A stretch of DNA of 64,000 bases, taken from Podarcis gaigeae (lineage: Eukaryota). The notes beneath the pieces were generated by a model, which did not search any database, was not told where the DNA came from, and was given only the letters and a program-made list of their open reading frames with translations. A program made the position numbers and the translations under genes. Below are positions 25,140 through 31,000 of this stretch, one piece after another (positions within the stretch are counted from its first letter, which is position 1; each line of letters begins with the position of its first letter). Location of the stretch: the NCBI GenBank assembly GCA_964106915.2, contig OZ066927.1; one strand, written 5' to 3'.

Positions 25140-26324
25140 CACCTTATCAGTTCTCCTGAATTAATGTGTCCACAGGAGAGAAGAAACAGGATTCGCTGTT
25201 TGAGTGACAGTAAAGGATGTTGCTCTCTGCTTCCCAAAGCGCCTCCCCGCACTCGAATTTCCCTTTCTCAAAGCCAAGCTTATCTGTGCCCAGCCAGTTA
25301 CTCGTTTCTCTACGCCATTAACTCCCTTCGCCAGGGGCACAGAGGCTCTCACAAAAAGTTCAAATCTACCACGACTGCTCTGTTTTGGACACCGGAAAGT
25401 CATAGCCCCAGCTTAGCCCCAGCTTAACCCCACTGAAGATTTATGGGCATGTTTACATCCATGACGTTTTTAGTGGTACTTGCTGCTAGCACTATTTCTC
25501 CATCACCTGGTGGATCAGGCAGGAGGTAGAAAGAGGGCAGGAGAAGAGGCAGCTGCAACTCTGGGGTAGCATCTCTGAACACTGTCTTAGCAAAGGCAGA
25601 GGGAAGTCCACACTGTTACCAAAAACTACAGAAATACCTGAGGATCCAAGGCTACCATGAAAAATGTAAACTCAACGCAGAAGGGAACGGGGTGAGCAAG
25701 GTTGTTTTATGAGTCCACTCACTCTACCTTGAAGAGGGCAACATTATGAGGAGGCAATAACAAGCTGCTCCACTTGGAGGGGGCCCCTCAACAGCTCCAC
25801 CTGGATCCTTCTGGTTTTCTCACCTTACTCAGGGGATTGACACCACTTTCATAGTGTAGATGTCAGTGACTGCTGAGTTAGACAAAGGAACCTTGAAGTC
25901 AGCAGTGGTGGCTCCTGGTGGTGGAGGGGTCAACTGTAATACTAGCCTTGCCAGCCTCCATAAGGCCTCAGTTGGCTCCAGGTTTTGGCTGAGATAACAT
26001 CTTCTAGCCATCAGGATCCACTGGAAGCTGATCAGAGTCCATAATTCCTTAGAGAGACCTGTCTTGACACTGCCTGGCTTGGCTTGATCAGCTTGTTCCC
26101 TGAACTTCCCTGGCAGGTTCCAGCTGTGATAGGCAATATGAAGTTTCTGGGTTAACCAGCCCTGGTATAAATAGCTTGAGTCTGGCCTGGTGCTCTCCTT
26201 GTTCGCTGTGCAACCACAGAACCTTTTGATGGCCACCAACTTGGATGACTTCAAAGGAGGATCAGACAAATTCATGAATATAAAGTCTATCAAAGGCTGC
26301 CAGAAACGATGGCTGTGCAGTCAT

Positions 26325-26565
26325 GTGTGGTGTAGTGGTTAAGAGCGGTGGACTCGTAATCTGGTGAACCAGGTTTGCGTCCCCGCTCCTCCACATGCAG
26401 CTGCTGGGTGACCTTGGGCCAGTCACACTTCTCTGAAGTCTCTCAGCCTCACTCACCTCACAGAGTGTTTGTTGTGGGGGAGGAAGGGAAAGGAGATTGT
26501 TAGCCGCTTTGAGACTCCTTAGGCTAGTGATAAAGTGGGATATCAAATCCAAACTCTTCTTCTTC
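26325..26565 (+). mobile_element. tRNA/CORE SINE (Squam3-like) with (CTT)n tail
   Basis: gtgtggtgtagtggttaagagc A-box; CORE-like gggtgaccttgggccagtcac; imperfect TSD cagtcatgt/cagtaatgt; second copy at 35986-36278. Confidence 0.85.
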
Positions 26566-26597
26566 AGTAATGTTGAAGGCAAGAATGCTTCTGAATA

Positions 26598-28086
26598 CAG
26601 TGATGCCCCGCAAGACGAATGCCTCGCAAGAGGAAAAACCCGCAAGACGAAAGGGTTTTCCGTTTTTTGAGGCACTTCGCAAGACGAATTTCCCTATGGG
26701 CTTGCTTCGCAAGAAGAAAGCCCATAGGGAATTCTCCGGGGACCTCTTTTAAATACTGGCGGTGGGGAGCAAAGCCTTCCCCCCTCCGGCCTTCAGAAGA
26801 GGTCCAGGAAGGCCGGCGGGGGCCGAAAGGCTTTGCTCCCCACCGCCAGCATTTTAAAAGCAGTCCGGGATAGCAGGGAAGCGCTTCCCGCTATCCTGGA
26901 CGGCTTTTGAAGGCAGGCGGGGGGAGCAAAGACTTTTGCCCCCCGCCAGCCTTCAGAAGAGGTCCTGGACCTCTTCTGAAGGCGGGCAGGGGGCGAAAGT
27001 CTTTGCTCCCCCCCGCCTGCCTTCAAAAGCCGTCCAGGACAGCGGAGAAACACGCTGCTTTTCTCCGCTCTCCCGGGAAGGCAGGCAGGGGGGAGCAAGG
27101 ACTTTTGCCCCCCGCCAGCCTTCAGAAGAGGTCCAGGACCTCTTCTGAAGGCGGGCGGTGGGCAAAAGTCTTTGCTCCCCCATGCCTGCCTTCCCGGGAG
27201 AGCGGAAAGTCTTTGCCCCCCCCGCCAGCCTTCAGAAGAGGTCCTGGACAAAGGTCTTTGTCCCCCCGCCTGCCTTCCCGGGGGCTTTTAAGAGCGGACG
27301 GCTTTTGAAGGCAGGCGGGGGGGAGCAAAGACTTTCGCCCCCTGCCCGCCTTCAGAAGAGGTCCAGGACCTCTTCTGAAGGCTGGCGGGGGGCAAAAGTC
27401 TTTGCTCCCCCCGCCTGCCTTCAAAAGCCGTCCAGGATAGCGGGAAGCGCTTCCCTGCTATCCCGGACTGCTTTTAAAATGCTGGCGGTGGGGAGCATGC
27501 CTTTCGGCCCCCGCCGGCCTTCCTGGACCTCTTCTTCAGAAGAGGTCCTGGACAAAGGTCTTTGTCCCCCCGCCTGCCTTCCCGGGGGCTTTTAAGAGCG
27601 GACGGCTTTTGAAGGCAGGCGGAGGGGAGCAAAGACTTTTGCCCCCCGCCAGCCTTCAGAAGAGGTCCAGGACCTCTTCTGAAGGCTGGTGGGGGGCAAA
27701 AGTCTTTGTCCCCCCTGCCTGCCTTCCCGGGGGCTTTTAAATCGCCCCGGGACAGCGGAGAAGTCCTCCGCTGTCCCGGGGCGATTTTTAAATGCTGGCG
27801 GGCGGCAGCGAAGCCTTCGCTGCCGCCCGCCAGCATTTTAAAATGCTGTCCCGGGGTTTTTTAAAATGCTGGGGGTGGGAAGAAAAGCCCTTGTCCCCCC
27901 CCCTCAGCCTTCAGAAGAGGTTGGGGGACAGACTGTCCCCGGACCTGGTCTGAAGGCGGTTTCCATAGGAACGCATTAATTGATTTTTAATGCATTCCTA
28001 TGGGAAACCGTGCTTCGCAAGACGAAAAACTCGCAAGACGAAAAAACTTGCGGAACGAATTAATTTCGTCTTGCGAGGCACCACTG
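26598..28086. mobile_element. 1489-bp non-autonomous Tigger/pogo-type element with palindromic GC-rich interior
   Basis: TA flanks (26596-97, 28087-88); 22-bp TIR cagtgatgccccgcaagacgaa vs cagtggtgcctcgcaagacgaa; repeated subterminal cgcaagacgaa; no transposase ORF. Confidence 0.9.
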
Positions 28087-31000
28087 TACCAGTTGCTGGA
28101 GGCTACAGTAGGGGAGAGTGCTACTGCATGCATGTCCAGTTTGAAGACTTTCCACAGGGATGTCAGTGACCACTGTGAGAACAGGATGCTGCTCTTATTA
28201 TGCTCTTATGTTAAGTGAACAGTGAGGCAGGAGGTCACACAAAGCTTTAGGAAGTAAGGGCAAATGTGAGATAGCGATACGTCCAACACACCCACAGGGG
28301 TGCCTCTGAATACTTTCTGGGAATCACCAGTGGGGAGAACAGGAAGTATTGTGCTCACTTCCTGCTTGTGGGCTTCCCAGAGGTCATGGTGACCATTTGG
28401 TGTCCCCATAGGCATGATGTTGATGTTTGTTCTCTCTCTACTACCCTATCTGTCTGTGCCTGCTTATTCTGTGGTTGCTACCAGTATGGATTTATCACAG
28501 GGTGGGGTTGTTCAGTAATGTATGTTGCTGTTACCTGACTTGATAAGATGGATGACAAATGTTAAGGAAACAATTAAGACACAGATGTCCTGTACAAACC
28601 CCTTGAAGACTTTTATCCAAGTTCTCTCCCCTGTGCTTCCTGTCTGCCTCACCCATATTATTAGTTTCTGGGAGGTTGTTTTTTTTAATGAGTAGTATCT
28701 TGAGAACCTACTTTAAAGAGGAAAGAAAACCCAGTTTTTCCCCCTCCCATTGATCTCTTGCACTCAGCTCCTGACATCAATGCAAATTCCTTTTTTTGGG
28801 GGGGGGGCGGGTGAACATACAGAATAACTTTTTTTAGATCAGACTTTCGTTGGCCATTAGCATCAGAGAGTCATTTGAATTGGCTTACCCTCATGAGCTG
28901 CAGAGAGCAAAACCTTCAGAAATTCCTGAACTTTTCTGATCTTTTCTAGGCCATCTCTAATTAGTAAAAAAATCAGGACAGCAATTTCCCCCCTCGCCAC
29001 CCCCAACGAGTTTGGCACTCTATTATTGATAATGTCATGTTTGCAAAACGGACAACATGATACAGTTCACAACTTCAAACAATAATATGAAAGCCATAAG
29101 AATCTGACGTCTGATCCCTGTGACTTGAAACTGCAAGTATAATTTCTTACAAGGGTCTTGCTCAGTTTCAAGCTTTGTAAATAGGAAGAGGAAATTTCAC
29201 AGCACGCCAAAAGCATCGCGTCAAACAGCAAACCATCAAGAGTTGTTCAGTGGCAAAGCATCTGCTTTGCATGTAGGCAGTCCCAGGTTCAAACCCCAGA
29301 TTCTCCAAGCAGGGATGGGAAACGTAAAACCTGGAGAGCTGCTGCCAGTCAGTGCAGGCAATACTGAGCTAGATGGACCCACGGTCTGATTCAATATAAT
29401 GCAGCTTCCTATTTTCCTAACAGGATTTTAAAATGGTTAAGATGTTTCTCCAAGCACACTAATACACAAACTTCAAAGCCAGAAATATTGCAATTCACAA
29501 ATATTATGTGCTACTAGCAACACACCACTTCAGAGTGCAAGGACTGGAAAGCGTAGATTTAAAATAATGTTTCCCAATTAAAAAAAAATAAAAATCCAAG
29601 CTGGGCTAGCATTCCCCTATAGATGCTGATTTTCTACATACAGGAAGTTTGCTTGCTTGCTTGTTTTTTTAACCAGTGTTCATCCGCAAATAGTTTCAGG
29701 ATGAACATTATGCTTTTAAGGTAGCCTTCACCAACCTAATGTGCTCAACTACAGCTCCCATCAGCCCCAATACATATGGTTGTACCATCTGGGGTCAACT
29801 TGAATTGTAGTCGAAAAGATGTAGATGCACCAGGTTGACTAAGCCAGCTTTAAGGAGTTCAAAATGATCACCCAAACACCCTCGCTTTGGTCTTTTTTAA
29901 AGGCCACATTCACTGCTATTTATTGTCATTAATTTCTCAGGGTGGATGCCATTTTCCCTTCACTGATCCCGCTCCTTTGGAGTGTTCCCAGCCAACCACG
30001 GACTACATAGAAATTGGAACAATATCACAGAGGGCAATGCTTGTTGGACTGGTCACATGAATGATCCTCTTTAATCGGGAGCCACATGGTCTCTTTTCTA
30101 AGTAGGCAAGGAGGCATCCGCAAGAACGTTTAAGAAACAGGTGGTCTAAAGCATGACCCCTCCTCCATTTCCCACAGACATCTGACTGGCCAATGTGAGA
30201 ACAGGAATCTAGACTAGAAGGGCCACTTGCCTGATGCAGCAGACTCCTCTTATGGGTCTAGATCTTCTGGCCTATTTTGCTGACAGTCCCTGTTTATGTC
30301 ACAATAAATTTGGTAATAGTCCAGCAAGGCTGTTTGTTGTTTCAGTGACAACAACCTTGTGCAGTTGCCCTTATGGAGTTCACCCCTGACAGCAAGAGGC
30401 CAGTGAGCACCTGGCACCTCAGAGGGATGACTGCAAGGGCCGCCAATCAAAAGGGCAGTGGGGGAGCTTGGCCGGCGGATGGATCTGTGCAGCGCCAAAG
30501 CCCCGCTACAAATGGTTCCTAAGCAACGCAACTCCCATCTCTCACTCTCCTCTCCTTCCCTCCTTGCTTCCTTCCTTCCATGCTGTTTAATTATAAAAAG
30601 TTGCCTTTTGATTTGGGAGCCCTTCACATCGCTTCCTCTGCAACCCCATTGTTTTCTTGGGAGGGCTTGCTGCTGTGATGATGACACTGCACGACAGAGG
30701 GAAGGCGGCAAAAGTTGTCCATCGCCAGTAATTAAGGCTCGGCGCTCCAGAACCCAAAACTTGGTAGCTGGTTTTAATGCTGGTCCGTATCTCTCCTGTT
30801 GAGGGGAGCAGCCAAATTTCCCAAGAAATCCTATCACTGATGTATCTTCAGAGCCACAGCTGTTGCTCAGTGTGACTCTGCAGTCACAGCGGCAACGTTG
30901 AACCAGCATTTCTAAAAATAATGCCATTAGCGGCAGAAACCGCTGGCTGTTTGAATTAAACAGAGCCATTGTTGGCAAGTGATTCCCACCTCAGACACAG

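Follow-up and report, generated by a model that had tools for sequence, protein, structure and literature searches.

Nested hairpins and interiors that differ between copies in a non-autonomous Tigger-type transposon family of Podarcis gaigeae

Classical MITEs are uniform in size. According to the available text of PMC3573991 they are usually shorter than 600 bp, and in the coral CMITEs the interiors are conserved, which is the opposite of the case presented here (PMC2872659, available part). Tandem-repeat MITEs of Xenopus, namely the Xstir-bearing ones and miDNA4, are named in the accessible part of PMC9659126. In lacertids, the Tc1/mariner-like fragment Zv817 is degenerate and has other ends, and we set it apart by this description (PMC10058329, available part). 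Tigger elements are defined by a TA target site, terminal inverted repeats (TIRs) of 8-33 bp and a DD29-36D transposase, and have been reported as young in reptiles (PMC7386202 and PMC9219625, as far as the accessible portions go). A DD36D signature is also that of Mover, which the consulted portion of PMC7386202 confines to red algae and Chromista and describes as having no detectable DNA-binding domain.

The element in the window and its relatives

A first-pass annotation of a 64,000-nucleotide stretch of Podarcis gaigeae (contig OZ066927.1, hereafter the window) had proposed a Tigger-type element with a GC-rich interior made of self-complementary modules. The ends are as described there: a TA is found at 26596-26597 and at 28087-28088, and the 22-bp TIRs that they flank have two mismatches (Table 1). 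The TA target-site duplication is present at this element, and 78 of the 82 complete copies of the census described below start and finish with TA. The assignment to Tigger was borne out by an autonomous partner with the same ends, Tigger domains and DD36D. The right end of the element recurs at 17 of the best 30 DDE_1 loci, and a DD36D signature is read at 14 of those 17; L038 combines both ends with the Pfam domains HTH_Tnp_Tc5 and DDE_1, and L043, L047, L048, L050, L055 and L056 contain one open frame each, which measured from the first Met is 565-572 aa long. The end-sharing loci are 1.6-6.3% apart, which points to a young autonomous family that is perhaps still active. On these grounds the element is almost certainly a non-autonomous Tigger-type (pogo) transposon, and the shared ends suggest that it is mobilised by the DD36D transposase of the partner, for which the four subterminal GCAAGACGAA-type motifs of the left end are putative binding sites.

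Table 1. Parts of the element, in window coordinates
Feature	Position	Strand	Remarks
Non-autonomous Tigger-type element, both TA dinucleotides included	26596..28088	+	youngest hairpin subfamily
Left end homologous to the autonomous element	26596..26719	+	four subterminal GCAAGACGAA-type motifs
Left TIR	26598..26619	+	22 bp; one private G>A
First fold-back hairpin	26690..26731	n/a	at the limit of the homology to the autonomous element
Source arm of the private 241-bp inverted duplication	26795..27035	+	switch points 3 to 2; holds core hairpin 1
Core hairpin 1	26888..27045	n/a	core at 26951-26981
Core hairpin 2	27064..27206	n/a	core at 27120-27150
89-nt exact direct repeat, copy 1	27230..27318	+	points 4 to 1; has a variant exclusive to the window element
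Inverted copy of 26795-27035	27296..27535	-	core 3 inside, at 27350-27380
Return junction	27525..27551	+	genome-unique; 2-nt microhomology; 11-bp hairpin formed
89-nt direct repeat, copy 2	27534..27622	+	
Core hairpin 4	27624..27714	n/a	core at 27654-27684
Two more hairpins typical of the family	27737..27843	n/a	
Subterminal imperfect hairpin	27905..27960	n/a	core half-site match in the left arm
Right end homologous to the autonomous element	27964..28088	+	right TIR at 28065-28086

Homology between the window copy and the partner is confined to the first ~124 and the last ~125 bases. Just past the left boundary, the sequence repeats in inverted form the bases before it, so that the interior opens with a preserved fold-back. 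As this homology stops ~124 bases from each end, derivation of the interior from the autonomous element is ruled out. Nor is a core captured from host DNA supported: nine core sites outside the census were checked, and all of them lie in family copies, eight with both TIRs. The subterminal imperfect hairpin is the likely seed of the core palindrome.

The family is large. The right 129 bp of the element retrieved 1,739 genome candidates, and the 40 that were scored were all identical; the left 28-mer, which marks a wider clan, has 2,648 exact matches in the genome. The hairpin subfamily is represented by 1,028 exact matches to its marker, so it has at least that many copies, and the full core palindrome has 1,002 matches.

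The interior has a GC content of 0.62 and an observed/expected CpG ratio of 0.56, against 0.23-0.27 in the flanks, in agreement with the GC- and CpG-rich composition noted initially. The core half-site matches the window 14 times with up to two mismatches (0.25 expected), every time within the element and on both strands. The four full cores stand where they had been placed, as do the half-sites at 26791, 27230, 27534 (annotated as ~27535) and 27909, and the small hairpins at 26865-26899, 27747-27779 and 27787-27843 fold as predicted. The first core hairpin exists, with a length of ~138-158 bp that is slightly above the ~135 bp originally given. The description of the interior as fractal was right about the nesting, which amounts to three levels: a 26-bp hairpin within the arm of a core hairpin, and this within the 241-bp arm. 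The inverted duplication extends over 241 bp with one indel, one adjacent substitution and a 260-bp spacer, and the direct repeat of period 304 is exact over 89 nt. Stop-to-stop frames of 103-164 aa run through the interior.

When the minus strand was folded as RNA, a value of -1236 kcal/mol was obtained against -638 +/- 7 for 12 dinucleotide shuffles, with a longest predicted helix of 202 bp. Local hairpins pair ~80% of the interior bases, against ~55% in the flanks. The long dsRNA, the ADAR and Dicer substrates and the cruciforms suggested for this element are predictions from such folding. A search of Rfam with the element gave no matches.

Minus-strand EGF exons lie on both sides of the element, at about 10.4-10.7 kb and 31.8-32.0 kb, and their protein matches are MEGF10-like with 68-85% identity, a range that does not separate the paralogues MEGF10 and MEGF11. 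An RNB-domain gene is located ~260 kb away, head-to-head with the host gene, an arrangement that fits the MEGF11-DIS3L synteny of human; because of this neighbour, MEGF11 is favoured over MEGF10. The insertion had been assigned to a MEGF11 intron: it is intronic in a gene of the MEGF10/11 family, but the choice of the paralogue follows from synteny. A regulatory role of the element on this gene is possible but hypothetical.

A SINE-like repeat with a tRNA-like head and a TTC tail, which is presumably Squam1-like, occupies 26313-26570 and ends ~25 bases before the element. The right flank is multi-copy by contig depth at 28089-28206 and 28330-28392, so the element may have inserted into an older repeat. 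In X3, X5 and X7, the alignment of single-copy flank contigs ends at 28087 and leaves 9, 8 and 16 letters unaligned in the record coordinates (X4 does not cover the flank). These contigs hint at an empty site, although no contig joins across it, and we do not count them as evidence. All four runs examined contain the end sequence of the family at high depth.

Interiors among the copies of the family

The census comprised all 89 marker sites of contig C1 and two of C2, that is, 91 copies. Nine of them were left out of the counts, eight for having no right end and one that is complete but was missed by the parser. An extended sample of 111 copies joined the 82 remaining ones to 29 others chosen for an identical right end. 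As proposed initially, interiors were compared among copies, and they differ: the 82 complete copies are 289-1533 bp long (median 844), show 79 different lengths, contain one to eight core half-sites and represent 70 architectures, of which 65 are singletons. One fixed interior for all copies is thus ruled out. It should be noted that the share of singletons is overestimated, because the census covers less than a tenth of the hairpin family. An interior in common with another copy was seen in 17 of the 82. The groups recorded with a shared interior are five copies of ~700 bp, five of ~540 bp, three of ~1,110 bp and four pairs.

Colinear pairs number 25 among the 3,321 of the census, compared with 79 of 153 for a control, another TA-flanked MITE of the same genome and loci, of which 18 copies were taken; this control is ~9% diverged and its harvest was limited to 900 bp. 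In the youngest subfamily (40 copies of the extended sample, with ends 1% apart), four of 780 pairs are colinear and lengths go from 378 to 1567 bp; eight copies with identical ends have eight different lengths. Conversely, the five copies of the ~700-bp group, which are 2-4% apart, retain one common interior, so that the change is not clock-like. The median length is 1,115 bp in the youngest subfamily (n=11) and 828 bp in the others (n=71; p=0.016).

Private junctions average 0.88 per census copy, and in the extended sample 75 of them are in the interior and 17 in the ends. Their count correlates with the divergence of the ends at rho 0.23 (p 0.04), misaligned outliers included. Strand-reversed tracts are present in 21 of the 111 copies, direct repeats of at least 100 bp in 19, and a sample-private 20-mer carried twice in 16. 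The arms of long inverted repeats in other copies have 0-3 differences per 100-165 bp. By a permissive test, deletions alone are enough to match 51 of 110 copies to a longer one in the sample; the other 59, which include all the longest, do not fit such a scheme, and the top single parent explains at most six copies. The earlier idea that the interior grows by fold-back or template switching is therefore partly sustained. Fold-back is visible in the window copy, at the left boundary of the element and in the reversed tracts, but growth was overstated, since deletion is at least as common.

Exchange between copies is also apparent. L094 has the left end of one subfamily and the right end of another, and in L063 and L081 a second type of hairpin is joined to the right half of the type of the window. 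This second GC-rich type, with distinct modules, is found in L063, L081 and L085. Outside the census, L185 (1,006 bp, TA on both sides) has two right ends, which form a 161-bp inverted match with two mismatches. A sister subfamily with the same ends (L065-L090, 257-498 bp) has short AAGCCGCTAAT-like repeats as its interior, which is also variable, with 41 of 210 pairs colinear, and two of these short copies, L087 and L089, hold several hundred bases of foreign sequence. In eight of the 91 census copies (L190-L197) the right end is absent within ~9 kb and the element breaks off inside hairpins; either a deletion or a long insertion may account for this. Such loss was seen in none of 23 short sister copies, a number too small for comparison.

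Possible origin of the changes in the interior

The inverted and the direct repeats of the window copy had been described as two overlapping structures. Both are present, but one switch-and-return explains them, and not two events. Synthesis ran forward to ~27318 and switched there, by a 23-nt homology, to 27035; it then continued in reverse for 241 nt as far as 26795, from which a 2-nt microhomology brought it back to 27230. The return junction occurs once in the whole genome, as does each of the left-end variants of this copy. The variant within the direct repeat is found at two places in the genome, both in the window copy, so it preceded the duplication. Outside the duplicated tracts, this copy departs from the subfamily at 10 of 860 sites, of which one is poorly covered. 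At this rate, a duplication dating from the insertion should have left ~7 differences between the arms, and one event is observed (p 0.006-0.027); the template switch hence appears to be younger than the insertion, a claim that concerns the window copy alone. The variant common to both arms is weaker evidence, because three other copies have it as well; these are built differently, and no sibling with the layout of the window copy was found among the arm-variant sites.

We lean towards error-prone repair synthesis over the hairpins, after excision, as the main trigger of these changes. A resident copy would be excised and the gap refilled from the sister; the displaced new strand would fold on its own hairpins, of which some would be skipped, giving deletions, and others copied again, giving inverted or direct duplications. 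Another copy would at times serve as template, giving chimeras, and the new strand would finally be joined to the other end. When the piece is excised again it would take its interior to a new site, which would give the few shared interiors. Such a process predicts old private changes in the ends together with a younger rearrangement, many unique and few shared interiors, no clock-like accumulation and occasional templating from other copies; L094, L063, L081 and L185 fit the latter. The evidence consists of the outcomes of rearrangement, and no pair of donor and new insertion was found among the copies compared. Against repair after excision count the private change at position 6 of the left TIR, which may affect excision, and the loss of the right end in eight copies, which goes beyond what excision repair alone requires. 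The divergence of the arms in other copies is also close to the expectation for the age of insertion and does not separate this process from change in place.

The main alternative, which we consider less likely, is that the interiors change in place without the transposase. Hairpins would stall replication forks, or extrude cruciforms that are then cut, with template switching or break repair as the outcome and a rate that depends on time and on hairpin length. The event of the window copy is later than its private mutations, and the dense local hairpins of the interior agree with this proposal. The copies that end inside hairpins do so too, although the only set available for contrast, the short sisters, is an inadequate control. 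The correlation between junctions and age leans weakly to time-dependent change. Nevertheless, older copies, 2-4% apart, hold identical interiors while very young ones nearly all differ, and chimeras require a second copy as template. In addition, the switch points of the window copy follow the order 3-2-4-1. The accessible part of PMC5453318 gives no events with point 4 before point 1 among human-chimp template switches and states that such events need newly made DNA to be reopened, so that this order is atypical for switches at the fork level. In gap repair, the overlap of two independently extended ends would naturally yield it.

Repair after excision can also be taken further, in a tentative reading that we think unlikely as a whole: the transposon would build its own body from bare Tigger ends, with excision repair adding, flipping and dropping hairpins, the products being mobilised again and the active lineage ratcheting to longer hairpin stacks. 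Were this so, more than 1,000 loci would have been seeded with distinct long-dsRNA and cruciform cassettes, and the family would be a genome-wide record of germline repair synthesis.

Amplification of a few long masters, with diversity arising mostly by deletion between modules and fold-back growth being rare, seems improbable to us. The copies that align by deletions only and the existence of shared interiors are what it would give, and the window copy could then be an outlier, its inverted pair being the longest of the 111. Yet this scheme leaves the 59 misfits, the longest copies included, without a parent and does not produce the reversed tracts, long direct repeats and doubled private 20-mers; furthermore, the masters themselves needed inverted copying to arise. 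Finally, an assembly or library fold-back artefact at the window copy is hardly credible: its junction is unique in the genome and no piece spans it among those listed from the short-read contigs of X1, X2, X3 and X7 (224 are unlisted), but the arms carry an indel and a substitution of their own, the same event also duplicated 89 nt directly, and like changes occur in 21 of the 111 copies.

Comparison with described elements

We found no description of this hairpin family in the literature searched, although the partner may be listed in supplementary data, for instance in the Tigger tables of PMC9219625, and repeat libraries may hold a consensus. The family is real, its features extend beyond the window copy, and it constitutes a variant of repeat-bearing MITEs. 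It bears on two open questions, the source of MITE interiors unrelated to the parent and the birth of long palindromes in vertebrate genomes. What makes it valuable is not the locus of the window but the whole set of copies, a natural experiment in how hairpins are repaired and how MITE interiors originate. More than 1,000 outcomes, young and anchored by their ends, are available together with an autonomous partner, so that the rules of fold-back, deletion and copy exchange can be counted. One library consensus is inadequate to represent such a family.

With Tigger elements it shares the TA target site and a TIR length inside the range of 8-33 bp (PMC9219625, available part), as well as a partner with HTH_Tnp_Tc5 and DDE_1 and a DD36D within DD29-36D (PMC7386202 and PMC9219625, consulted portions). 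Unlike Tigger derivatives, its interior is unrelated to the partner and GC-rich, consists of hairpins within hairpins and changes from copy to copy in most cases; no interior of this kind is described for them in the accessible text of these two papers. High copy number, as in classical MITEs, is found in the hairpin subfamily, whereas their size rule fails here.

The switch of the window copy fits exactly the four-point model, with one switch and its return, but its tract of 241 nt and its order belong to a class unobserved among the human-chimp events (PMC5453318, accessible part). Galileo/Foldback of Drosophila is similar in its strong structural variation, its chimeras between subfamilies and its large fold-backs (PMC3573991, available text), and the lengthening of the TIR to 161 bp in L185 is a further likeness. 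Galileo belongs to the P superfamily and varies in long TIRs of 18-1,250 bp, according to the same text, whereas the TIRs here have 22 bp and the variation is internal; the long, internally repetitive TIRs of Foldback/Galileo are absent, since the long inverted pairs are internal, with L185 as the exception. In DTC84 of Donax, conserved ends likewise form a cassette around a variable array with a palindrome per unit, the copies are almost all unique, and shortening of a longer array by deletion has been invoked (PMC3879986, available part). The units of DTC84, however, are arranged head-to-tail in one orientation and in whole-number counts, as the same source presents them, whereas in the family of P. 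gaigeae the modules occur in both orientations and are nested three deep, inverted duplications are gained, and the partner is identified.
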